Source: an uncultured bacterium (lineage in GTDB: Bacteria; Chlamydiota; Chlamydiia; Chlamydiales; SM23-39). Taken from it: a stretch of 64,000 nucleotides of DNA. Shown in pieces: positions 5,822 to 40,318 of this stretch; within the stretch, counting starts at the first letter, position 1, and every line of letters begins with the position of its first letter. Under the pieces are notes generated by a model. That model saw nothing but the letters and a program-made list of their open reading frames with translations. It searched no databases and was not told the origin of the DNA. The position numbers and the translations under genes are program-made. The stretch is taken from positions 13,404 through 77,403 of the forward strand of contig CAZVXF010000003.1 of the NCBI GenBank assembly GCA_964630875.1, written 5' to 3'.

Positions 5822-6717
5822 GTTGCCATCCCTAGCGACTCTCCGTAATTGGCTTTCGTTTCAAAACCCTTTTGGGAATTCATGACTAAATCTTTATCAA
5901 AGGTCATGCTTCCTTTTTCAAATAAAAGAACAATACATGACCCGCCAAAGGAAAAGTATCCTTTTTCATCACCTTTGGATACTTTTTTCTCCGGCGTATA
6001 TGTTTGATGAATAGTGCCTACACAAATTGCCCCAACTTCCACATAAAGTATTTTCCCAAAGGCTTCTGTATCTATATCCGTAACGACACGTTTATTGGTC
6101 CAAAGAATAGAAAAATTTTTCCTCAGCGCAATCGGACTTACAGAATGATAATCTCCATCGATTGGCTGAGACCTTGCTGGAATTCCATCAGCCACAAAAT
6201 GAAATCGATGATAATCTGTCGGACAAAGACGCGCGATGACCATGGAGCCTTCATGATATCTTCTTGCATAGGCGCCATTTTGCAGAAATGTCACTAAATC
6301 AAACGGTCTTCCTTTCACATAAAAAAGGTCTTCTTGTTGAAGGGAGGGGAACACTAAATATCTTCCATCTGCCGGTAAAACAGCGCGCCTCGGATCCTGC
6401 ACAATAGGCCTTACTTCTTTTTTTAATTTGCGGGTGAAAAAGTCATTAAAAGAATTGAAATTCGTATTTGCAAATTCAGATCGATCAATCCCATATGTAT
6501 TAATAAAAGGATCTATCTTTTTCGCGCTCTTGGGTCTTTTCTGAAAATAACCATAAATTTTCGAGAAAATCGGGATTCTCGAAAGAAGAGGGGTAAATAA
6601 AAAAGAAAAAAGACGAGAGGTCCAGCTATCCCCGTAGAAAAGCGATAAAGCTCGATGGCCGTAGATTTTCTCCACCTCTACTGTATTTGTCTTTCGATGA
6701 ATATAGCGAATTTCCAT
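5818..6717 (-). CDS. psd: phosphatidylserine decarboxylase proenzyme
   Basis: 299 aa. DYHRFHFVADG and the C-terminal self-cleavage-like block GYFSFGGSCIVLLFEKG are typical of Psd. Confidence 0.85.
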   Translation of the reverse strand: MEIRYIHRKTNTVEVEKIYGHRALSLFYGDSWTSRLFSFLFTPLLSRIPIFSKIYGYFQKRPKSAKKIDPFINTYGIDRSEFANTNFNSFNDFFTRKLKKEVRPIVQDPRRAVLPADGRYLVFPSLQQEDLFYVKGRPFDLVTFLQNGAYARRYHEGSMVIARLCPTDYHRFHFVADGIPARSQPIDGDYHSVSPIALRKNFSILWTNKRVVTDIDTEAFGKILYVEVGAICVGTIHQTYTPEKKVSKGDEKGYFSFGGSCIVLLFEKGSMTFDKDLVMNSQKGFETKANYGESLGMAT

Positions 6718-6720
6718 CTG

Positions 6721-7749
6721 TTAGATATTATAGAGTTTTCCGAGCTCAGTCAAAATTTTTCTATGTCCAGAGGAAAAAGGAAGCTCACGTAATCGTGAAA
6801 TTTCGATCCAATCGTAACGACTTTCAAATCGACAGGTTTTAATTAAATAAGGAAATAAATTTGCTTTATACTTTGTAAATGTATGATTGCATGGTTGTAA
6901 TTTTATTAACAAATTATCTGCTTCATTTAAGAAATATTCTAATGAATTGTGTATCTGAATATAAGGAAATTCATAAAGATCGGCCATGATCTTTCCTTTT
7001 TCTCCTTTTCGAACAAGAATATACCCATCACTTTCAAAAACAAATACGAGACGATCGATTTGACTGATGCGCTGTTCTTTTGTTTTTATCGGCAAATACT
7101 CTGCTCGGTTTTTTTGCCTCGCTAAACAGGCGTTTTTGAGTGGGCACACTTCACAACGCGGTTTTGGTGTGCAAATGGTTGCTCCAAGCTCAATCAACGC
7201 TTCCGCGGTGACCCAAGGAATCTTTGGATCTAATAGAACTTCAGTTTTCTCATGTATTTTTTTTCTTGTCGTACTTTTTTGAATATCTTCTTCAATACAA
7301 AAAAAACGAGACACAACCCTCATTACATTTCCATCGACAGCAGGAGCTCTTTGTTGAAAAGCAAAACTTCGGATTGCTCCGACTGTATATGGGCCGAAAC
7401 CATGAATCGATAAAAGCTCATTTTCAGAGGTTGGAATTTCACCACCAAATCGTTCAACGAGCTCTTTTGCAGCTCGATGTAAATTTCTGGCTCTAGAATA
7501 ATAACCTAAGCCTTCCCAAGCCTTAATGACTTGTTCAAGCGGAGCGCTGTAAAGCGCTTTTACATCTGGGAAAAGCTCCATAAAACGTTGAAAATAGGGA
7601 ATCACAACAGACGCCCGTGTCTGTTGGAGCATGACTTCAGAAATCCATACCCGGTAAGGAGTCCGGTTTTTTCTCCAGGGAAAATCTCTTTTGTTCTCTT
7701 CGAACCACTTTTCTAGTAAAGTCTCACTCATGCGCCGCTGTGCTTTCAA
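6721..7749 (-). CDS. mutY: A/G-specific adenine DNA glycosylase
   Basis: FPWRKNRTPYRVWISEVMLQQTRASVVIPYFQRF, a HhH-GPD region and a Cys cluster (CTPKPRCEVCPLKNAC), followed by a NUDIX-like C-terminus. Confidence 0.9.
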   Translation of the reverse strand: MKAQRRMSETLLEKWFEENKRDFPWRKNRTPYRVWISEVMLQQTRASVVIPYFQRFMELFPDVKALYSAPLEQVIKAWEGLGYYSRARNLHRAAKELVERFGGEIPTSENELLSIHGFGPYTVGAIRSFAFQQRAPAVDGNVMRVVSRFFCIEEDIQKSTTRKKIHEKTEVLLDPKIPWVTAEALIELGATICTPKPRCEVCPLKNACLARQKNRAEYLPIKTKEQRISQIDRLVFVFESDGYILVRKGEKGKIMADLYEFPYIQIHNSLEYFLNEADNLLIKLQPCNHTFTKYKANLFPYLIKTCRFESRYDWIEISRLRELPFSSGHRKILTELGKLYNI

Positions 7750-8755
7750 TACTGGATCCGATTTTCATCTCCTCGATCATATTGGTCCTTTTGCTCATGC
7801 CCATAAAATGCCTTTATTCATTGAAGAGGAAAAGAATTTTACACTCTTCAAACATTATTATCCTATGGCGGAAAGTATTCATTTTCCAGAAATGGCATCA
7901 GATCTTTCATTTTTTGCCAAAAATTTTGACGAACTTTATGAGTGCAAATTTTGGCTTCCCCATTTAAAAAAACTCTTTGCAGATCTTTATCAAAAAGAAA
8001 TGCGCTTAATTTTTTGTGCTCATGGGCAATCCGATAAAGGATTTGGTGCACCTCTTTTACATCCTTACGCATCACAAGATTGCTGCATGATTTATGGAAA
8101 GCTCTTTAAAGAAATGCTTCAAGAACTCAAAATCTCAGCAAACTGTAAAGAGACTGGAAATTATAGACTATCCCACTATCTAAAGTATCAAGAGTTTTAT
8201 GATTCAATCGCCAAAAAAGAAATCCTCTCCAAATTTCCAAACCCACAGTTCACCCTTCTCTATGCTCCTACTTGGAAAGATGCTGACGGGGCTACGAGTT
8301 TTTTTCAGAATATCTCATCACTTTGTGAAACATTGCCTAGCAGCATAAATCTCATTGTAAAAGTTCATCCGCTTCTTGAACAAAGGGATCCTGCGCAATA
8401 TTACCACATTGCGCACATCATCGAACAAATGCCAAACAGACTTCTTTTAGAGACTTTCTTGCCCATCTATCCTTTACTTGCTTGCGCTGACGCATATCTC
8501 GGGGATTACTCTTCGGTTGGCTATGATTTTCTGTATTTCCAGAAACCGATGTTCTTTTTGTTGAATGAAAGTTTACCGAAAGGAAAAATTCATCACTGCG
8601 GACTTGTCTTAAAAAGTATTGATGAACTGTTCGAAAACCTAGCTGAGAATCCATATCGCGATCAACAAGAAGCCCTTTATAGAAAAGCCTTTTGTGTTAG
8701 TCGGCGCGAGGGGGGAGAACAAACAAAGCATCTAGATCGCTCATCGTATCTATGA
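7730..8755 (+). CDS. CDP-glycerol glycerophosphotransferase (TagB/TagF) family protein
   Basis: YAPTWKD, IVKVHPLL and DYSSVGYDFLYFQKPMFF blocks match the Glyphos_transf family layout. The start is set at Met 7730 rather than the track start 7691, which overlaps mutY. Confidence 0.5.
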   Translation: MRRCAFNTGSDFHLLDHIGPFAHAHKMPLFIEEEKNFTLFKHYYPMAESIHFPEMASDLSFFAKNFDELYECKFWLPHLKKLFADLYQKEMRLIFCAHGQSDKGFGAPLLHPYASQDCCMIYGKLFKEMLQELKISANCKETGNYRLSHYLKYQEFYDSIAKKEILSKFPNPQFTLLYAPTWKDADGATSFFQNISSLCETLPSSINLIVKVHPLLEQRDPAQYYHIAHIIEQMPNRLLLETFLPIYPLLACADAYLGDYSSVGYDFLYFQKPMFFLLNESLPKGKIHHCGLVLKSIDELFENLAENPYRDQQEALYRKAFCVSRREGGEQTKHLDRSSYL

Positions 8756-9767
8756 TTGGATGGACTTCGATTTCATACGAAAATCCACCCGGTTTTGGCT
8801 CTTTCACATATTTGACAATACCCACTCTTAAATCAGGAGGAAAAACGCCGTCAAAACCAGTCGTTACGAGCAGATCTCCTTTTTTTAAAAGGGCAATTTT
8901 TTTTGGAGCGGAGCCCTCTTCATCTACATAGTCAAAATTAAATCCGATTCCTTTCAGAGAGGAGCTGCGCGCTCGCCATAAAGGGGAACTGCTTCCATGA
9001 AGTTCTCCTTTTGCTAGATAAGCCTCTTTGTTTTCTAGCTCCGATCTGACTTCTTGAAGTTGACTAACTAACGATTCTTTATCGGGCAGCAACTCGATTA
9101 ATGCGCTCATCTTTGAAAGAATTTCTTCATTGCGAATACTCCCACGAATCGCTCGAACAGCAGGGGAAAGGCCTGAATCTGAAATCAGCCTAACGCGAGA
9201 CTGTCGATTGCCTACATAATCGACAACACCAACAAGAGCGCACCCTGAAACAACTGGACTATTCTTTGCAATGACTTGCTTCCCTAATACTTGATTATCT
9301 TCTTCTCCTACATTGACCCACAAACTACTTCCCCAAGATGATGGATCCCGATAGATCACTTCTGCTGGCATTGCCATTAACTCTGACTGAAGAATATTTT
9401 GCAGATGTCGTGCCCGCCTTTCAAAAAAAGGTTTATCTGTCGCTTCCGTTTTAAATTTCTCATAAAGAGTGAGTTGCTCCAGGATTCTTTTTTCATCGCC
9501 AAGCCATTGAGAAATGCGTTCGATTTGCGATCGTAACATTGCATTTTCTAATTCGAGCTGCGCAATTTCTTTCTCATTTTTATGAAGCGAAGCAAAAGTG
9601 GGGCGACCAGGTAGATATTTTTTAATGCCTCTTGCACCATCCCAAACAGGTCCAAGCGAGGCTACAGAAAAAGATCGCAATTGATCAGAAATGTGTAAGG
9701 GAATATTGATCCAGCAAAAAAGAAGCGCTGCAAGAGTGATATAAAACGGTGATAATCCTTTACGCAT
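8697..9767 (-). CDS. mreC: rod shape-determining protein MreC
   Basis: N-terminal TM and coiled coil, then PVVSGCALVGVVDYVGNRQSRVRLISDSG and GDLLVTTGFDGVFPPDLRVGIV, characteristic of MreC. Confidence 0.8.
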   Translation of the reverse strand: MRKGLSPFYITLAALLFCWINIPLHISDQLRSFSVASLGPVWDGARGIKKYLPGRPTFASLHKNEKEIAQLELENAMLRSQIERISQWLGDEKRILEQLTLYEKFKTEATDKPFFERRARHLQNILQSELMAMPAEVIYRDPSSWGSSLWVNVGEEDNQVLGKQVIAKNSPVVSGCALVGVVDYVGNRQSRVRLISDSGLSPAVRAIRGSIRNEEILSKMSALIELLPDKESLVSQLQEVRSELENKEAYLAKGELHGSSSPLWRARSSSLKGIGFNFDYVDEEGSAPKKIALLKKGDLLVTTGFDGVFPPDLRVGIVKYVKEPKPGGFSYEIEVHPIIDTMSDLDALFVLPPRAD

Positions 9768-9818
9768 ACTTTTCCTCGCAGATTAAACCAAAAGAAGCTA
9801 TAATTAAAGCTTATTTTG

Positions 9819-9891
9819 GGGGCGTTAGCTCAGTTGGTAGAGCGCTACGATGGCATTGTAGAGGTCATCGGTTCGAATCCGATACGCTCCA
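9819..9891 (+). tRNA. tRNA-Ala (anticodon GGC)
   Basis: Hand-folded cloverleaf. Acceptor GGGGCGT/ACGCTCC includes the G3:U70 alanine identity pair. D arm TAGCTCAGTTGGTAGAGC, anticodon loop ATGGCAT, T arm GGTTCGAATCC. No encoded CCA. Confidence 0.9.
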
Positions 9892-9917
9892 ATCATAATG
9901 GCTTGATGAACTGCCTC

Positions 9918-10985
9918 TTATTTCTTTCGAGCAACGATATAATGGCTTGTTGTGAATAGCCGCATACGATCTGCTTCGACAAATGCTTCGCCATCTTTGA
10001 CAAGCCTGTCAAACAGCGGCTTAAAATGTGCTGGCAGAATTTTGTAGCGAACGCAATAATGAATGAGTTTTGTGACGCGAGTGAAGAATTTGTCAGCATT
10101 TTGAATCAAAGGCGCTTGCAATCCGTCAATACTCGCATTTTCATTTTTGAGAATTTCAAAGCCGGCGTCTTCAAGAAGTCGAATGCAATTTTCGATGGAA
10201 TGTGTTCCAATAGCCCCGATTAAAGGTTTGACTCGTTTCATCAAGTCTGCATGATGAGGATTTTTTGCATCATAGGCACTTAAACTTACCCAGTCCAAAG
10301 AACCAAATTTACCACCTGGTTTTAATAGACGATGAATTTCCTTAAAGGTTTTTCCTAGATCTTTTGCAAGGCTAAAAAGACATTGAATTTGATATACATT
10401 GTCAAAAGAAGCATCTGGAAAGGCATAAGGAATTTGATTCACGTCACCTTGAACAAATTCAACTTTTTTTGAAAGACCATTTCCTGCAGCAAATTTACGT
10501 GCTTGTTGAAGTTGATCATTGTCGATATTCATTCCCGTTACATGCGCGCCTGACATTTGCGCCATGTGACTTGCAACACGCCCTCTTCCACAACCAAGAT
10601 CTAACACCTTCTGAGAGCGCGCAAGTCCCAAATCTTCACACATCATTTTTTCGAAGAGTTTCTGGTTTGTAATGATGCTTGCAGACAGATCCATTGCTGG
10701 AGGAATATACATTTTTTCTACTTGCCCAACAGAGCAAAGGTGATTGAGAACCGAGTAGTAGTCGACGATTTTTTTCTGCATCACTTTCTGGTAATCGTGC
10801 CCAAGCTCTGCAATGAGTCTTTCTTCATCTGCCCAATCATGATCGTAAATCACGTACGAATCGAGGAATGCGTCTACTTTTGCAGGGGGTAACGTGTAAA
10901 GAGTTTTCAACGACTTCAAAATGACTGTCAATCGATAAAGCCAGAATTGCGTTTTCGAAGAAACAGAAGAAATCAGTGTACTCAT
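9918..10985 (-). CDS. SAM-dependent methyltransferase of the sterol C-24 methyltransferase (Erg6/SMT) family
   Basis: Collinear with yeast Erg6 as I recall it: VLDLGCGRG, VTGMNI, FVQGD, FDNVYQIQ, LKPGGKF, DWV..YDAKNPHH and a C-terminal LFTTSHYIVARKK (Erg6 has LFTPMMLFVARKP). The YEYGWG sterol block is absent. Confidence 0.65.
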   Translation of the reverse strand: MSTLISSVSSKTQFWLYRLTVILKSLKTLYTLPPAKVDAFLDSYVIYDHDWADEERLIAELGHDYQKVMQKKIVDYYSVLNHLCSVGQVEKMYIPPAMDLSASIITNQKLFEKMMCEDLGLARSQKVLDLGCGRGRVASHMAQMSGAHVTGMNIDNDQLQQARKFAAGNGLSKKVEFVQGDVNQIPYAFPDASFDNVYQIQCLFSLAKDLGKTFKEIHRLLKPGGKFGSLDWVSLSAYDAKNPHHADLMKRVKPLIGAIGTHSIENCIRLLEDAGFEILKNENASIDGLQAPLIQNADKFFTRVTKLIHYCVRYKILPAHFKPLFDRLVKDGEAFVEADRMRLFTTSHYIVARKK

Positions 10986-11065
10986 GTTGAAGCCCTTTTA
11001 GCACAATACTATCAACGAAAATTTTCGATGTCTAGAAAATATTCAATTCTTGATAAACTGCTTTT

Positions 11066-12937
11066 ATGTCCGAAATTTTGAATCCCGAACAATCACAAGC
11101 CGTTCACTTTGGAGAAGGGCCCTTGCTTGTACTTGCAGGTGCAGGTTCTGGAAAAACGCGCGTCATTACATTTCGTATTGCCCATTTAATTGAAAGCGGA
11201 ATTGATCCTGAACAAATTCTCGCAGTCACTTTTACCAATAAAGCAGCCGAAGAGATGCGATCTAGAATTCATGCATTAACAAACAAACGCGTTTTAGCAA
11301 CAACATTCCATAGTCTAGGCGCACGCATTTTACGCGGATCCATTCATCAATTGGGCTATCAAAATACGTTTGCTATTTACGATGAGGATGATAGTGAAAA
11401 ACTACTGAAAAGTTGCTTAGATCAACTAGGATTTAGTGGCGTCGATAAAGGATTTGTCAAAGAAACGAAAACCTCGATGAGTGAGGCAAAAAACAATCTG
11501 TCCGAAATCAATGACCATGTACTTGCTCAAGTATATCACCTTTATAATCAGAAGCTTAAAGAATGTAATGCAGTTGACTTTGATGATCTTCTTTATTTAA
11601 CAGTGCAACTTTTACAAAATCATCCAGATATTCGAACCTACTATCAAAATAGATGGCGTTATGTCCTGATCGATGAATATCAAGATACCAATATTGCGCA
11701 GTATACAATCGCAAAAATTTTGAGTGAAAAAAACAAAAATATTTTTGTTGTGGGAGATCCCGACCAATCCATTTACTCTTGGCGTGGAGCTCGCTTTCAA
11801 AACATTTTGAATTTTGAGCGCGATTTTCCGGGCGCTGTTGTCATTACGCTTGATCAAAACTATCGAAGTACAAATACAATTCTAGAAGCAGCGAACGCAC
11901 TGATTGAACATAATTCGAATCGTTTTGAAAAGAAATTATGGAGTGAACTAGGCGTTGGTTCAAAAATTGGCCTCTATATCGGTTATAGCGAAAGACAAGA
12001 GGCAGACTTTGTCGCATCGCGTATCAATCAACATTTGCACTACGATTGCTCCTTGGATTCGATCGCGATTTTTTATCGAACAAATGCACAATCGCGCCCC
12101 TTTGAAGATGCGCTTCTTTCTCGAAGAATTCCTTATACAATCATTGGAGGCGTTTCTTTTTACGAAAGAAAAGAAGTTAAAGACATCCTTGCCTATTTGC
12201 GCATGCTCATCTCAAATTCCGATTTAATTTCATTTTTACGTACGATGAATGCTCCGAAAAGAGGCATTGGTCTTACATCTCTTGATAAGTTGGTCAATGC
12301 GGCCTCTAGTCACCAAATTCCCATTCTTACTTTTTGCGATGAGCATTTAGATACAGTTAAACTCGGCGCAAAACAAAGAGAAAGTCTTAAGAATTATATT
12401 CGTATGATTCATCATTTACGCTTGGCAACGCCTCAAATGAGTATCCATGAAGTCATTCAAGAAATCATTACGCAGACTGGATATCTTGCCTTTTTGCAAC
12501 AAGATCCAGACACTGCACAAGAAAGAAAAGAAAATATTGATGAGTTAATGGGAAAAGCAGCGGAATGGGAGGAGGAACAAGAAAATCCATCCATTCAACT
12601 CTTTTTAGAAGAGCTCGCTCTTCGATCGACGATCATCAAAGAAAACCCTGACGCACCATCCATCAAGATGATGACGCTTCACAATAGTAAAGGGCTTGAG
12701 TTTCCAATCGTCTTTTTAGCAGGCCTTGAAGAGGATTTGCTGCCTCATATTAATTCCAAAATGGACCCAGCTGCAATCGAGGAAGAGAGAAGACTTTGCT
12801 ACGTCGGCATTACAAGAGCTAAAAAAACCCTCTATCTCACAGCCTCAACCTACCGCTACACATGGGGGACAGAACGACTCATGGCCCCCTCACGCTTCTT
12901 ACGAGAGCTCCCGGAAGATCTGATTCTCCGATTGTAA
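11066..12937 (+). CDS. uvrD: ATP-dependent DNA helicase UvrD/PcrA family
   Basis: LVLAGAGSGKTRVITFRIAHLI (Walker A), VLIDEYQDTN, VGDPDQSIYSWRGA, LDQNYRST, MTLHNSKGLEFP and RLCYVGITRAK. Confidence 0.9.
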   Translation: MSEILNPEQSQAVHFGEGPLLVLAGAGSGKTRVITFRIAHLIESGIDPEQILAVTFTNKAAEEMRSRIHALTNKRVLATTFHSLGARILRGSIHQLGYQNTFAIYDEDDSEKLLKSCLDQLGFSGVDKGFVKETKTSMSEAKNNLSEINDHVLAQVYHLYNQKLKECNAVDFDDLLYLTVQLLQNHPDIRTYYQNRWRYVLIDEYQDTNIAQYTIAKILSEKNKNIFVVGDPDQSIYSWRGARFQNILNFERDFPGAVVITLDQNYRSTNTILEAANALIEHNSNRFEKKLWSELGVGSKIGLYIGYSERQEADFVASRINQHLHYDCSLDSIAIFYRTNAQSRPFEDALLSRRIPYTIIGGVSFYERKEVKDILAYLRMLISNSDLISFLRTMNAPKRGIGLTSLDKLVNAASSHQIPILTFCDEHLDTVKLGAKQRESLKNYIRMIHHLRLATPQMSIHEVIQEIITQTGYLAFLQQDPDTAQERKENIDELMGKAAEWEEEQENPSIQLFLEELALRSTIIKENPDAPSIKMMTLHNSKGLEFPIVFLAGLEEDLLPHINSKMDPAAIEEERRLCYVGITRAKKTLYLTASTYRYTWGTERLMAPSRFLRELPEDLILRL

Positions 12938-13567
12938 TTGCGAGGAAGCAGAAATATTTATCTTTTCTGGAAATCGAGATGCAATCTCCGGATCAACATT
13001 ACTTAATGATCTAAAACCCAAGCAAAGGAGTAAAGTTTTACTAAGAGATCCTGTATAAAATAATATAGTCGGTATTTGACTATTCGCTGGACTCGCATGA
13101 TACAGTTCATCGGCATGAGAAATAAAGACAAACTCTGCCCTCTTAGAATAGGCAATGCGTTGCAACAACTCAGGCCAACCAATTTTTGTCCTATAGTCGT
13201 TATCTCTAAGCTTGCGTGCGTCAAAACAATGAAATTTTAAGCCCAATTCATTTGCCATTTTCTTAGCTTGGGCCTCCTGCTCAGATTGAGAGCCATAAAA
13301 AAGAACTCGGGTTAGATTAGATTTATTCTGAATTGCATTTTGATTTTTCTTATTTAGTTTTTCAAGAGCTCCTGTTTCTATAGGCATTGGGGATGGTTTC
13401 GAAAAAGGGCGATTCAGAATTACAAATAAAAGGCCAATGCCAGAAAGCGCAAGCAGAACAATTGCGACTATAGGATTGGAAACTGTCTTCCGAATCTCAC
13501 AAAAAAGACGAGGAACACTACTTATGTTTCCAATATTCTCAGCATTCAATTGCATAAAAATCCTCAT
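12899..13567 (-). CDS. membrane-anchored degenerate AAA-like protein (P-loop lost)
   Basis: N-terminal TM (IVAIVLLALSGIGLLFVIL), then an AAA-collinear region. VLFYGSQSEQEAQAKKMANELGLKF stands where VLxYGPPGTGKT would be, EFVFISHADELY at Walker B, and ILFYTGSL...VDPEIASRFPEKINI. 4-nt overlap with the upstream AAA gene. Confidence 0.45.
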   Translation of the reverse strand: MRIFMQLNAENIGNISSVPRLFCEIRKTVSNPIVAIVLLALSGIGLLFVILNRPFSKPSPMPIETGALEKLNKKNQNAIQNKSNLTRVLFYGSQSEQEAQAKKMANELGLKFHCFDARKLRDNDYRTKIGWPELLQRIAYSKRAEFVFISHADELYHASPANSQIPTILFYTGSLSKTLLLCLGFRSLSNVDPEIASRFPEKINISASSQLQSENQIFRELS

Positions 13568-14544
13568 TCTGTTTCAGCGTGGGTTTTAAAGTATGTAATA
13601 ATGCTGTCCTTAATCGCTTCTTTAGTACTAACTGATCCTAATCTAACAGTATCACTCAGCGCATCAAGAGCATCCGATACTTGCCGACCTGATCTACCTA
13701 CAAATGCTTTGCTATTCACCAGAAAATTGGCCATATCCTGATTTAATAAATCTTTTATGCCCGGAATATTCCTGGCATGCGCAAGAAGAATGTCCTTCAT
13801 TGTTTTTGAATCTGGATTCCCAAGCTTCAGCTTATAGGTCATACGATCTAAAAGATTGGGATCAAGACCTTTCTCCTCCTTTGTATTGAAAAGAAACATG
13901 ATCTTATTTTTCTTTTCGGAGTACGTTAAAAATGCATCAAAGGCTCTGCTCACCTCTGGATCGTCTTTATATTTCAATACTAAATGTTTAGCATTATCGA
14001 TCACTAAAATAGTGGGACAAGACAGTTCGCAAAGAGACTTAAAGAATGTAGCTATTTTCACTGGATCCTGTGCTAAGGCAATAAATAAAGGTTCTGGAAA
14101 AAGAAAATAATTAGCGTTTGAATTACGTGCAATTACTTGGCATGCTGTTGTTTTTCCAGTTCCTATCGGTCCAATAAAAATTGCATGATTTAATCTTGTA
14201 TTTTTCTCAACCGCATCTTTACATGTCCTCTGAATTTTTGTATAAATATCAGTAATTTCAGAATTAAAAATTGGGGGTACTATTGGTACCTCGTTACGTG
14301 GATCTGTCCACCATTTTGTAGAATACATTTCCGGACATTTCACCATTTTAAAGGGATCTGTTTCTGTAGACGAAATGCATAGATTACAGAGATCGTATAT
14401 AGTGCGGATATGCCCACCCACGTTGACCGTAAAGGAGAGAGCCTTTTCCCATGTCACATCTGACCAATCAACATCTTTAAGTTGCTCCCATAACTTTCCT
14501 AAATCTATTTTATCCCAAAGCCAGTCAAGCCCTAAAAATCCCAT
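13564..14544 (-). CDS. AAA+ ATPase (classic AAA clade-like) with Walker B DN instead of DE
   Basis: AIFIGPIGTGKTTACQVIARN (Walker A), CPTILVIDNAKHL (Walker B position) and IMFLFNTKEEKGLDPNLLDRM...LGNPD (sensor-1 and arginine region). The reading frame continues upstream through one TAG into ORF 14560..14703. Confidence 0.75.
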   Translation of the reverse strand: MGFLGLDWLWDKIDLGKLWEQLKDVDWSDVTWEKALSFTVNVGGHIRTIYDLCNLCISSTETDPFKMVKCPEMYSTKWWTDPRNEVPIVPPIFNSEITDIYTKIQRTCKDAVEKNTRLNHAIFIGPIGTGKTTACQVIARNSNANYFLFPEPLFIALAQDPVKIATFFKSLCELSCPTILVIDNAKHLVLKYKDDPEVSRAFDAFLTYSEKKNKIMFLFNTKEEKGLDPNLLDRMTYKLKLGNPDSKTMKDILLAHARNIPGIKDLLNQDMANFLVNSKAFVGRSGRQVSDALDALSDTVRLGSVSTKEAIKDSIITYFKTHAETE

Positions 14545-14841
14545 AGTCGGTATTGAAGACTAAGTTTTTCGCGCCAAAACAGACGTGTTAATATTTGTAT
14601 CAGATAAACATGTATTCGTATCAATAGTCTTTGATTCTTGATTTCGTTGAATGTTTTCTTTAGGACATTGGGGATTCGTATTAAAAAAATTTCCTATTCT
14701 CATATAAGCCCTCCTTTTTAAAATTAGCTCTTTTTTTCAGACTTCTCGTCATTATTTCCTGTTATCCATTGATAAAGCCGTTTCACAGACATAACTCCTG
14801 CACTAACTACTGCGCTACCAATGACTACCTTTGTGACACCT
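14407..14841. repeat. segmental duplication, copy A (AAA 5' end + 47-aa ORF + 3' end of the 92-aa gene)
   Basis: Aligned by eye to 15625..16048 at offset 1218. There are 3 substitutions over the first ~300 nt, then a 1-nt indel, a short diverged patch and a 12-nt indel. Confidence 0.85.
14560..14703 (-). CDS. 47-aa ORF encoding the shared N-terminal module (MRIGNFF...TSVLARKT), in frame with the AAA+ gene
   Basis: Not in the ORF track (<60 aa). ATG 14703 is preceded by AAAGGAGGGCTTAT (strong SD). Hand translation: MRIGNFFNTNPQCPKENIQRNQESKTIDTNTCLSDTNINTSVLARKT*. It is a paralog of the N-termini of the 92-aa and ANK proteins. Confidence 0.5.
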   Translation of the reverse strand: MRIGNFFNTNPQCPKENIQRNQESKTIDTNTCLSDTNINTSVLARKT

Positions 14842-15002
14842 GCTAAAACTGCGCCTATTGTCCAACTGCATGGGTCGATGATCCCCATCGTGGGAAGTGA
14901 TGCAAAAACATCTCTAGCGACAACTTTTGTTTTGTCTTCTTGAGCTTGTTCAACGCGCTTTTCTCCTGATTGCTTAGGAAGAGAAATATTTTCAACTCTC
15001 AT
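14724..15002 (-). CDS. small membrane protein: N-module + VVARDVFASLPTMGIIDP motif + TM + basic tail
   Basis: 92-aa ORF starting 13 nt downstream of the CPBP gene. The hydrophobic segment CSWTIGAVLAGVTKVVIGSAVVSAGVMSV is followed by KR. Confidence 0.6.
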   Translation of the reverse strand: MRVENISLPKQSGEKRVEQAQEDKTKVVARDVFASLPTMGIIDPCSWTIGAVLAGVTKVVIGSAVVSAGVMSVKRLYQWITGNNDEKSEKKS

Positions 15003-15015
15003 AGTTTTTTTTCCT

Positions 15016-15465
15016 TTATAAAAATAGGGGTTTCAATGCCTGACAGTTATTCGCCATATGGGCTCCTATACTGCCTGCGATTTTAAGCTGAGATTCCTTA
15101 ATCATTCCAAGTTGTAGCCCAAGCAAAAATGCATATTCTTGATTCTGATGCGGGAAAGCAAAGAGAAAGGACGAAATGATAATTTGTGCGCTTTTCGCAA
15201 ATAACGGGGCAAATATTCTTTGCGAGGCCTTTTGTAAAATCACACCTTGGAGTAGACCTCGATAAAGGATTTCTTCATAAATAGGCGCAAAAAGAATTCC
15301 CAGACAAAGACATTGTATTTTTACGTCTCGATCTACTCGAGAAATATCTAGTGACTCTTTAGGTTTTTTGCAAATGATCAATTGAGAGAGCTTTTCAAGC
15401 GGGAAATATCCTAAAGCTCCAAGACCCAATCCGAAACAAAAACGCTTTGCAATATCTTGCATCAT
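15016..15465 (-). CDS. CPBP family intramembrane glutamic endopeptidase (CAAX protease/bacteriocin-processing family)
   Basis: All three family motifs are present: PIYEEILYRGLLQG (EExxxR), FLFAFPHQ (FxxxH) and GAHMANN (HxxxN). The protein is multi-pass hydrophobic. Confidence 0.8.
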   Translation of the reverse strand: MMQDIAKRFCFGLGLGALGYFPLEKLSQLIICKKPKESLDISRVDRDVKIQCLCLGILFAPIYEEILYRGLLQGVILQKASQRIFAPLFAKSAQIIISSFLFAFPHQNQEYAFLLGLQLGMIKESQLKIAGSIGAHMANNCQALKPLFL

Positions 15466-15619
15466 ATTTTAGCGGCAAAGATTAAGGAGTAAGTAATTTT
15501 TTTATCAATACTTTTTTGTTGCATTCTCTATCTTTGATTTTTTAAGATTGCTGATCTGAAAAATGGAGAACTTGTAAACAACTCTCGCGTAAACGCGAAA
15601 GCTTTATCGTCCGTTTATA

Positions 15620-15921
15620 GCGGCGATATGCCCACCCACGTTGACAGTAAAGGAGAGAGCCTTTTCCCATGTCACATCTGACCAATCAACATCTTTAAGT
15701 TGCTCCCATAACTTTCCTAAATCTATTTTATCCCAAAGCCAGTCAAGCCCTAAAAATCCCATAGTCGGTATTGAAGACTAAGTTTTTCGCGCCAAAACAG
15801 ACGTGTTAATATTTGTATCAGATAAACATGTATTCGTATCAATAGTCTTTGATTCTTGATTTCGTTGAATGTTTTCTTTAGGACATTGGAGATTCGTATC
15901 AAAAAAATTTCCTATTCTCAT
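15620..15921 (-). pseudogene. duplicated 47-aa N-module ORF plus a truncated 5' remnant (~46 codons) of the AAA+ gene
   Basis: Second copy of ATG/SD/47-aa ORF (two amino-acid differences, N8D and P11L), the same TAG, then MGFLGLDWLWDK...VNVGGHI. Homology stops at ~15625, so the ATPase domain is missing. Confidence 0.7.
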
Positions 15922-16048
15922 ATAAGCCCTCCTTTTTTAAAATCACTTATTCTCTTCTGCCTTATCGTCATTATTTCCTGTTATCCATTGATAAAGCCCT
16001 TTCACAGACATAACTACTGCGCTACCAATGACAACCTTTGTGTCACCT
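15625..16048. repeat. segmental duplication, copy B
   Basis: Near-identical to 14407..14841. See copy A. Confidence 0.85.
15943..16042 (-). pseudogene. orphan 3' remnant of a 92-aa-type small membrane protein gene
   Basis: Encodes ...GDTKVVIGSAVVMSVKGLYQWITGNNDDKAEENK*, compared with ...GVTKVVIGSAVVSAGVMSVKRLYQWITGNNDEKSEKKS* in the intact copy. It is out of frame with, and immediately downstream of, the ANK gene stop. Confidence 0.55.
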
Positions 16049-16498
16049 CTTGGAACGAGCACCGTACGACTTTAATAATGAAATCAACTCTTTATCATTT
16101 TTCTTTTTCGCTGTATCTAAAGGCGTATTGCCTTCATTATCAGGAATATTTGGATCGGCTCCATTTTCTAATAATAACTTACATATTCTAACACTATCAC
16201 CATCGCTTGGCAGTTTTACTTGAAAATGTAACGCTGTATTCCCATCATTGCTCCGGTGATTTATCATTGCTTTTTTAGATTTGATGTTCTGACGGTTCAT
16301 TTCTTGATTGTCTCCTTTCCAAGAAAAATAACCGATTACTAAAGCAGCGACCAATCCAACACTTAATGGATCAATGATCCCCATCGTAGGAAGTGATGCA
16401 AATACATCTCTAGCAACAACACTTGTTTTCCCTTTACTATCTTGTTCAGCACAAGATTGTATTGATTGACTTGATCTATAAAAATTTTCAATTCTCAT
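16043..16498 (-). CDS. N-module + VVARDVFASLPTMGIIDP + TM + ankyrin-repeat protein
   Basis: Start set at ATG 16498 (SD GGAGAAAGAGC). The track start 16561 is out-of-frame read-through of the CPBP2 tail. The C-terminus NDGNTALHF...LLENGADPNIPDNEGNTPLDTAKKKNDKELISLLKSYGA gives two ANK repeats. Confidence 0.75.
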   Translation of the reverse strand: MRIENFYRSSQSIQSCAEQDSKGKTSVVARDVFASLPTMGIIDPLSVGLVAALVIGYFSWKGDNQEMNRQNIKSKKAMINHRSNDGNTALHFQVKLPSDGDSVRICKLLLENGADPNIPDNEGNTPLDTAKKKNDKELISLLKSYGARSKR

Positions 16499-16954
16499 GC
16501 TCTTTCTCCATGATAAATAGTGATCTTTGCGCAAGACAGTTATTGGCCATATGAGCGCCAATACTACCTGCTAATTTTAGCTTCGATTCCTTGATCATCC
16601 CAAGTTCAAGCCTAGTAAAAGAGCATATTCCTTATGCCAATGCAACGATGCAAACAGGCACGAGACACTCAGTACTTGCATTCCACAAGCTAGAATAGAA
16701 GAGAAACACTTCTGGCAGACTTTTTGTAAAATAACTCCTTGAAGAAACCCTCGATAAATCGCCTCTTCATATACAGGAGCTAACAAAACACCACGACAAA
16801 CACATTCAATTTTTACATCAAGATCAATGGATGAATAATCGATTGATTTTTTACTCACTTCTCTTTGCATTAAGCAAGATACAAATTCATTTGGGAAATA
16901 CCCGACAACTCCAAGACACGCCCCGAAACCAAAACGCTTTGCAATGTTCATCAA
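16488..16954 (-). pseudogene. CPBP family protease paralog disrupted by a 1-nt deletion
   Basis: EEAIYRGFLQG and FASLH are present. At ~16597 the sequence reads gga tga where copy 1 has gga atg a. The shifted frame restores MIKESKLKLAGSIGAHMANNC (copy 1 has MIKESQLKIAGSIGAHMANNC), so the HxxxN motif is downstream of the frameshift. Confidence 0.7.
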
Positions 16955-17088
16955 AAACTCTGAAAGTGAGAAGCGATAGGTTTAAAACTATTTACAAGTC
17001 AATTTTTTTTAGTACTTCCTAAAAAATCTTTAATAAGCCATCATTTTATGATGTTTATTTTTTCAATCCAATAATAGGGAGGGATGCT

Positions 17089-39982: not shown

Positions 39983-39988
39983 AAAGAA

Positions 39989-40063
39989 TCTGGGTGATAG
40001 GATTCGAACCTACGACCTCTTGCACCCCATGCAAACGCGCTAGCCAAGCTGCGCTACACCCAG
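39989..40063 (-). tRNA. tRNA-Pro (anticodon GGG)
   Basis: Hand-folded cloverleaf. Acceptor CTGGGTG/CACCCAG includes the C1:G72 pair typical of bacterial tRNA-Pro. D arm TAGCGCAGCTTGGCTAGCGC, anticodon loop ATGGGGT, T arm GGTTCGAATCC, discriminator A. Confidence 0.9.
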
Positions 40064-40318
40064 ATAGTCAGAAGGAAGCTCTTCGAATTGGAATTCAGAT
40101 TTTTTGAATTCTTTGAGGCCATGTCGAGCACAATTTTCGATAATTTTTTCTAAAGTATCGCCTTGATTGAGATCTAGAGAACTAATATCTACAGATAATG
40201 AAGCGCTAAGGATAACCCCATTGCGCAATCCTTGTACTTTGAAATTGGCAAAGATTGCCCCTTTTTTTCGGGTTACATTCACAAATCGTATTAAATTATT
40301 TTCAGCTAAATCTTTCAT
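40040..40318 (-). CDS. small hypothetical protein whose last 8 codons (including the stop) lie inside tRNA-Pro
   Basis: ATG 40318 is preceded by GGAGAAACATACC. The 92-aa product ends ...SDYLGVAQLG*, where LGVAQLG* is the translation of tRNA positions 1-24. Confidence 0.45.
   Translation of the reverse strand: MKDLAENNLIRFVNVTRKKGAIFANFKVQGLRNGVILSASLSVDISSLDLNQGDTLEKIIENCARHGLKEFKKSEFQFEELPSDYLGVAQLG

Follow-up and report, generated by a model that had tools for sequence, protein, structure and literature searches.

Gene conversion templated by a pseudogene can inactivate a functional paralogue, the textbook case being human CYP21A1P into CYP21A2, and bacterial silent-cassette gene conversion systems are represented by Neisseria pilS to pilE and Borrelia vls. 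Here, we describe a locus that resembles both in a 64,000-nucleotide (nt) stretch of DNA (the window) from an uncultured bacterium of the Chlamydiales (GTDB lineage SM23-39; assembly GCA_964630875.1, contig CAZVXF010000003.1, positions 13,404 to 77,403). It holds a gene that joins a short N-terminal region, the N-module, to an AAA ATPase (copy A) and a truncated tandem duplicate of the start of that gene (copy B); in this assembly copy A is broken by one in-frame TAG. As with CYP21A2, a nearby dead duplicate appears to have donated a short tract with linked substitutions, a nonsense change among them, non-reciprocally and with the flanks of the recipient kept; as with pilE and vls, a truncated or promoterless copy near an expressed gene would be the source of short tracts that alter or abolish its product. 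We put the probability at roughly 0.55 that gene conversion patched the TAG of copy B into copy A and thereby created a very young null or hypomorphic allele. The stop is read as having come recently from the neighbouring truncated duplicate, or as an assembly chimera of both copies, not as an ancient mutation and not as a recoding signal.

Minus-strand translation of 13564-14703 reads MRIGNFFNTNPQCPKENIQRNQESKTIDTNTCLSDTNINTSVLARKT*SSIPTMGFLGLDWLWDK... and bears out the reading frame given in an earlier note on this DNA, in which translation from ATG 14703, with a strong Shine-Dalgarno sequence (AGGAGG, 6 nt upstream), meets a TAG at 14560-14562 in the frame of the AAA open reading frame (ORF); no frame error was found. 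ATG 14544, the annotated start of the AAA ORF, is in frame with ATG 14703 (159 nt, or 53 codons, between them) and is separated from the TAG by SSIPT. The same note held that this internal ATG lacks an obvious Shine-Dalgarno sequence, and neither GGAG nor GAGG was found in the ~25 nt preceding it. It had also placed the stop at a conserved Phe position, and alignment puts it in the corresponding column, with F/F/I/I/L/F in that column in paralogues and homologues. The AAA ORF downstream is free of further lesions, and promoter and terminator consensus scans of 12800-17100 gave chance-level matches only. The elements of copy A, with lengths in amino acids (aa), are:

13564..14703, minus strand: copy A, the complete N-module-AAA frame of 379 sense positions with one TAG break in this assembly (translation; uninterrupted 379-aa protein P0002 / HSX13861.1 of a sister assembly)
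14560..14703, minus strand: N-module ORF of 47 codons with a strong Shine-Dalgarno sequence, its TAG one residue ahead of the conserved [AS]S[LI]PTxG (translation, alignment)
14560..14562, minus strand: in-frame TAG; TTG (Leu) in the sister assembly, ATC (Ile) or TTT (Phe) in homologues
14542..14544, minus strand: ATG of the annotated 326-aa ORF, without a Shine-Dalgarno sequence and 15 nt past the TAG; ATT (Ile) in the sister assembly
13564..14544, minus strand: classical AAA ATPase ORF of 326 aa with Walker A GPIGTGKT and Walker B VIDN (Pfam and PDB profile matches, alignment, AlphaFold2)

An exact-sequence look-up clustered the 326-aa protein with the 379-aa HSX13861.1, annotated as an AAA family ATPase, of a sister Chlamydiales metagenome-assembled genome (MAG; GCA_035480255.1, contig DATIHY010000082.1, L001); the comparison is one of contigs. 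Aligned to window positions 24704..6110, the sister contig differs at five places in 18,594 nt (4 mismatches, 1 indel; 99.97% DNA identity), all of them within the repeat formed by copies A and B and zero in ~17.7 kb of unique DNA. These differences, and the patch that they delimit, are:

14561, copy A: TAG in the window, TTG (Leu) in the sister (base A/T)
14542, copy A: ATG in the window, ATT (Ile) in the sister (base G/T)
14518, copy A: CTT in the window, CTC in the sister (base T/C)
14485, copy A: GAG in the window, GAA in the sister (base G/A)
15651, copy B: TTT in the window, TT in the sister, a private 1-nt deletion
14485..14561 (minimal, 77 nt) to 14429..14671 (maximal, 243 nt of exact A/B identity): copy-B patch inside copy A, with 4 informative sites

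In a four-way alignment copy B reads TAG/ATG/CTT/GAG in both assemblies, and copy A of the window matches it at 4/4 sites within 77 nt, the clustering of donor-like substitutions by which gene conversion is recognized. Copy-A-specific bases are kept in the window on both flanks (14682 A, 14672 C and 14428 G), and copy B did not gain A alleles, so the exchange was non-reciprocal. The longest exact A/B identity is accordingly 243 nt in the window and 110 nt in the sister, and the chance that four random single-nucleotide polymorphisms would all lie in the repeat and all equal copy B is ~1e-9. Since the stop is in copy A of the window and not in copy A of the sister, and the four linked sites equal copy B, it would have moved from B to A recently. 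The TAG itself probably arose in the dead copy B, and it appears in copy A in this assembly only. The earlier note had proposed that the TAG either predates the duplication or was spread by conversion; the first proposal fails because copy A of the sister has TTG and only copy B has TAG, and the second is favoured by the four linked copy-B sites. A repair of an ancestral TAG in the sister through four point mutations was rejected as improbable (~1e-9) and opposed to the polarity given by orthologues. As read from the contigs, the indel at 15651 shows that the two assemblies sample slightly different genotypes, not one genotype assembled twice.

Copy B, whose presence with the same TAG at 15778..15921 had been noted before, was recovered as described (15780..15778, with the same translation round the stop). 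It begins at ATG 15921, ~1.2 kb upstream of copy A, is 98% identical to 14394..14693, and reads ...ARKT*SSIPTMGFLG... before stopping after 52 residues of the AAA N-terminus. Copy B and its surroundings, which include paralogues with an N-module and a transmembrane (TM) segment, comprise:

15612..15921, minus strand: copy B, truncated duplicate of the N-module and the first 52 AAA codons, the presumed donor; TAG 15778..15780 and ATG 15760..15762 in both assemblies
15934..16024, minus strand: leftover 3' end of a duplicated small N-module-TM gene (87% identity to 14715..14805), flanked by the ankyrin gene and copy B
14724..15002, minus strand: paralogue of 92 aa, N-module and TM segment
16043..16498, minus strand: paralogue of 151 aa, N-module, TM segment and ankyrin repeats
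16488..16954, minus strand: CPBP-1, a CPBP paralogue with a frameshift, unchanged in the sister assembly

These features form two tandem units. Unit 1 (16954 to ~15604) consists of the frameshifted CPBP-1, the N-module-TM-ankyrin gene, the small-gene 3' remnant and the truncated copy B, and unit 2 (15465 to 12899) is intact in the sister assembly. CPBP-1 encodes an N-terminal 119 aa and then a stop, with its tail, including the third catalytic motif (GSIGAHMANN), in another frame; because this frameshift is identical in the sister, unit 1 is taken to be a decaying duplicate. Copies A and B of the sister differ by 3 non-synonymous, 1 nonsense and 3 synonymous changes, a mix that suggests copy B is decaying neutrally. 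The two units are 69% identical in the CPBP gene and the small-gene N-module, 87% in the 3' end of the small gene and 98% at the start of the N-module-AAA gene, a gradient that fits recent exchange in exactly the A/B segment. Separately, the N-module-TM-ankyrin gene (15934-16498, minus) was observed to resemble a duplicate of the small N-module-TM gene in which the middle has been swapped for ankyrin repeats, the old small-gene 3' end persisting as a non-coding remnant right behind the ankyrin stop codon.

When the 326-aa ORF was run with HMMER against all 1.84 billion representative proteins, only seven family members emerged (P0011-P0016 and P0018; 28-42% identity, all 347-388 aa). None begins at the MGFLG position, and none is split between the N-terminal region and the ATPase (n=7). 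The N-module, of the form M[RK][IV]... ~25 polar residues ... VA[RK]xVxAS[LI]PTxG, is fused and unbroken in at least four (P0011, P0012, P0014 and P0016) and divergent or partly recognisable in P0013, P0015 and P0018. In the four with an alignable motif, the residues at the stop position are I, L, L and F, and those at the position of the restart Met are L, A, I and I, none of them Met. A sense codon at the stop position, which the earlier note had suggested looking for in related genomes, was thus found in the sister (TTG) as well as in homologous loci L011 (ATC, Ile) and L012 (TTT, Phe), with Leu in P0012 and P0014. Locus L012 is syntenic with the window (sigma-54, GT9, ..., CPBP, small N-module-TM gene, N-module-AAA, 183-aa partner, UvrD, CMAS), as is L016, which has the same order minus the small gene, and each carries one undisrupted unit. 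Given these unbroken single units in syntenic loci and the sense codons in the family, sequence comparison confirms the fused N-module-AAA gene as the ancestral form and the native gene as a 379-aa fusion. The proposal that the AAA protein was once an N-module fusion is upheld by the 379-aa sister protein with Leu (TTG) and by the fusion in at least 4/7 family members, two syntenic loci included.

The family forms ~8 clusters at 50% identity among the 1.84 billion representative proteins. Scans of GTDB species-representative genomes with AAA-family and N-module alignments found no relative. In Joint Genome Institute (JGI) metagenome contigs, an exact scan for the patch (degenerate at variant sites) found nothing and a family-pattern scan gave generic AAA matches at 25% identity only. 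A word-indexed protein search with the fused sequence returned only the protein itself, and an N-module profile search two window proteins only. The family seems limited to a few uncultured chlamydia-like lineages known from metagenome runs only.

Gene conversion from copy B starts from what is directly observed, namely the reading frame with its stop, the intact allele of the sister, the identity with copy B at four sites, the kept flanking A markers and the conserved fused architecture. Copy A would ancestrally have been one 379-codon gene and copy B a decaying duplicate of its first ~100 codons. Copy B would first have gained the nonsense change TTG to TAG and the Ile-to-Met change ATT to ATG, and a non-reciprocal tract of at least 77 nt and at most 243 nt would then have been copied from B into A, bringing TAG and ATG in together. 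The strong ribosome-binding site would now yield a 47-aa leader fragment, and termination-reinitiation at the ATG, 15 nt further on and lacking a Shine-Dalgarno sequence, would give little leaderless 326-aa ATPase at best. Most likely, the allele would be null or strongly hypomorphic, making copy A a very young pseudogene. The patch is known from the comparison of two assemblies, from which we infer its origin in vivo, its direction from B to A and the loss of function.

Several points weigh against this account. All inter-assembly differences are in a 98% repeat, where assemblers and polishers err, and the collapse of one bubble onto the copy-B path could give the state seen in the window. 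An assembly or consensus artefact of this kind, in which the real copy A reads TTG/ATT/CTC/GAA and its variants, spaced 19-33 nt apart within one de Bruijn bubble, were merged into the copy-B path or mis-polished to it, is a rival that we hold to be clearly less probable than conversion. It would explain why all 5 differences between otherwise identical assemblies lie in the repeat, why the window is left with a 243-nt exact repeat where the sister has 110 nt, and why the change disrupts a gene that is intact in the sister and in every homologue. Nothing else in the sequence examined could have served as template for the A alleles of the sister, which must therefore exist in real reads, and the state of the window implies that its assembler bridged the 243-nt exact repeat. 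Logan contigs from two runs (SRR9179560 and SRR9179562; k=31) are 100% identical to the window in its unique DNA (~22.8 kb of contig sequence), but none spans the TAG; they end exactly at 31-mers common to copies A and B, so the graph is tangled there. The gradient of identity between the units would also be expected from a later, separate duplication of the A/B segment, and the loss of function is itself drawn from sequence. On the other side, an artefact would have had to leave the other A/B bubbles unaffected (14672/14682 and 14428 remain copy-specific), the copy-B indel at 15651 shows a real genotype difference, and the same identity gradient indicates biological exchange at this place.

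If the stop is real, the broken gene might still be of use to the cell. In a functional split, a 47-aa peptide and a leaderless 326-aa AAA protein would both be made, the AAA protein through coupled translation or through reinitiation at ATG 14544, which is just 15 nt past the stop in the same frame, precedes a lesion-free AAA ORF and lies inside [AS]S[LI]PTxG, near where a leader might be removed. We consider this improbable, because ATG 14544 has no Shine-Dalgarno sequence before it, 0/7 family members are split or start there, and the allele occurs in only one of two near-identical assemblies. The ATG is also an imported copy-B base, a linked passenger from a pseudogene and not a product of selection, and hence not an adaptation for restart. 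Some termination-reinitiation there is nevertheless conceivable, so that among the three outcomes put forward in the earlier note (separate products with internal restart, a young pseudogene or readthrough) the pseudogene fits best, restart keeps a place and readthrough goes unsupported. A phase-variation-like switch, with copy B as a silent cassette that turns the ATPase ON (TTG) or OFF (TAG) by conversion in a clonal population, would account for the tandem arrangement of donor and recipient, and for the occurrence of both states in genomes with zero point differences over ~17.7 kb of unique DNA, which means exchange faster than point mutation. It is very unlikely all the same: there is one donor and two states were seen, no ON-state template would be left in the sequence examined once copy A had been converted, and copy B resembles debris of a decaying unit, with the frameshifted CPBP-1 and a gene remnant beside it.

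Programmed readthrough or reassignment of the TAG, yielding the full-length fusion, was rejected and has hardly any probability left. Although the stop is in frame and the ORF behind it is intact, recoded stops are expected to be conserved across orthologues, and here sense codons stand in the sister and in four alignable homologues. A recoded codon would also be expected to go unused as a terminator or to have a dedicated tRNA or element; within the window TAG is an everyday terminator that closes 5/48 ORFs of at least 200 codons, conserved genes included, and the same TAG sits in the truncated dead copy. No suppressor tRNA was found in the window, whose only tRNA genes are:

9819-9891, plus strand: tRNA-Ala(GGC)
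39988-40064, minus strand: tRNA-Pro(GGG)

The gene broken by the stop belongs to a cassette. In 5/5 loci, the N-module-AAA gene is preceded directly by a gene for a CPBP (Rce1-like) intramembrane protease, in some with the small N-module-TM gene between them; the loci are the window with its sister (window 12899-16954, minus), L011 167-2435, L012 5573-8011, L015 2-2740 and L016 5544-7597. The motif [AS]S[LI]PTxG occurs only in the cassette (scan of the window and the four other loci), and the partner gene that follows the AAA gene encodes 183-218 aa, or 385 aa in L015. The remaining members of the cassette in the window are:

15016..15465, minus strand: CPBP-2, Rce1-like intramembrane glutamic endopeptidase with EEILYR, FPH and HMANN intact (Pfam PF02517, E 2.7e-13)
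12899..13555, minus strand: downstream partner of 218 aa with a strong N-terminal TM helix, conserved after the AAA gene in syntenic loci

CPBP-2 scores 50.5 bits against a cut-off of 22.4, and its EEILYR, FAFPH and HMANN correspond to the EExxxR, FxxxH and HxxxN/D of CPBP/Rce1-like proteases. Its best NCBIfam matches are all below cut-off (MrtJ 41.3 bits vs 75, Mrt_core 29.9 vs 100, and MrtS). On its sequence features this system does not belong to the myxosortase family, but a protease-substrate relation with the N-module proteins is a reasonable hypothesis. A bolder version makes the N-module a cleavable N-terminal leader, recognised at [AS]S[LI]PTxG by the CPBP protease whose gene is always adjacent, which would make it a novel N-terminal type of CPBP-dependent processing or sorting signal limited to one clade of environmental chlamydiae; the TAG and ATG of the patch would then be a switch to a leaderless ATPase and not a knock-out. 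We think this unlikely, and were it true the ATPase would start almost exactly at its presumed mature N-terminus. A literature search on CPBP proteases in chlamydiae, and on the runs and the assembly, found nothing. For the partner (12899-13555), Pfam, NCBIfam and PADLOC gave no family; hhalign produced a collinear but very weak alignment to the AAA family (probability 3%, E 0.013) in which FYGSQSEQEA stands in the place of Walker A. The partner could be a degenerate AAA-like subunit or fold.

Residues 122-241 of the 326-aa ORF match Pfam AAA PF00004 (E 7.9e-14, 52.7 bits; gathering cut-off 21.2), and the family profile matches AAA domains of a VCP-like ATPase (E 1e-20), FtsH and Msp1 (E 7e-11) in PDB. 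Walker A GPIGTGKT fits GxxGxGK[ST], with G178, G181, G183 and K184 invariant in the family alignment. Walker B departs from hhhhDE, with LVIDNA in the window protein and MIDNV in its closest homologue, P0011 (Asn for the catalytic Glu), while most other family members keep D-E (IDEA); the D-N form suggests weak or absent hydrolysis in the sub-branch of the window protein and P0011. Run on the family alignment, AlphaFold2 modelled the AAA core (140-376) with confidence, and most of residues 1-139 had a predicted local distance difference test score (pLDDT) below 50. A single hydrophobic helix separates the N-module from the AAA domain in most family members, and a hydropathy scan found no convincing TM helix after the motif in the window protein or P0011 (best 19-residue hydropathy 0.97 and 1.34, respectively, vs 1.8-1.9 in those paralogues and homologues whose TM helix is clear); in these two proteins the N-module may thus be the sole targeting element. 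This sub-branch may thus represent a hydrolysis-deficient ATPase that also has no TM helix after the N-module. PADLOC gave weak generic AAA and ankyrin matches only, with nothing pointing to a defence system. Elsewhere in the window, a 504-aa ORF at 17411-18925 (minus), called as 446 aa in the sister contig, has no Pfam family; two direct copies of a 173-nt repeat lie within it (17766-17938 and 17976-18148; 73% identity) and correspond to a duplicated protein segment of ~70 aa.

For annotation, neither a natural pair of genes nor a recoding site should be read into the 326-aa AAA ORF and the two 47-aa ORFs. The case illustrates that a conversion tract of <250 nt from a truncated tandem duplicate can suffice to disable the functional parent gene, and also that such repeats can equally fake that result in MAGs. 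The cassette of CPBP protease, small N-module-TM protein, N-module-AAA protein and partner gene is a more durable and more original lead than the stop: present in all five loci examined and absent from reference genomes, it offers a testable protease-substrate hypothesis in uncultured chlamydiae.

Among described systems, the ATPase family is closest to the N-terminally anchored single-domain classical AAA ATPases (Msp1/ATAD1, the AAA module of FtsH and the VCP/Cdc48 domains), as seen in its profile matches and in the one hydrophobic helix that most members carry ahead of the AAA domain. Identity to these is just ~25-30%, however, the window protein and P0011 have Asn instead of the Walker B Glu and no clear TM helix, and nothing in those proteins corresponds to the conserved N-module or to the CPBP gene partner. 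The cassette recalls the myxosortase systems (MrtX/MrtC/MrtP, MrtJ and MrtS; PMC11980579; bioRxiv 10.1101/2023.06.07.544157) in its linked protease gene and its short motif directly ahead of a hydrophobic helix. The signal that myxosortases cleave is C-terminal and consists of a Cys-containing motif, a TM helix and an Arg-rich tail (PMC11980579), whereas the putative signal here is N-terminal, with [AS]S[LI]PTxG 30-50 residues from the N-terminus and without the invariant Cys or the Arg-rich tail, and the protease scores fall below the curated cut-offs. The conversion event is of a known kind in a new place. Where pilS/pilE and vls have many diverse cassettes, dedicated cis elements and antigenic diversity as their outcome, this locus has a single degenerate donor, two states and no sign of a dedicated mechanism. 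Unlike the CYP21A2 case, this one is bacterial (from a MAG of environmental Chlamydiales), has a ~310-nt tandem copy as its donor, and is known only from a comparison of two assemblies.

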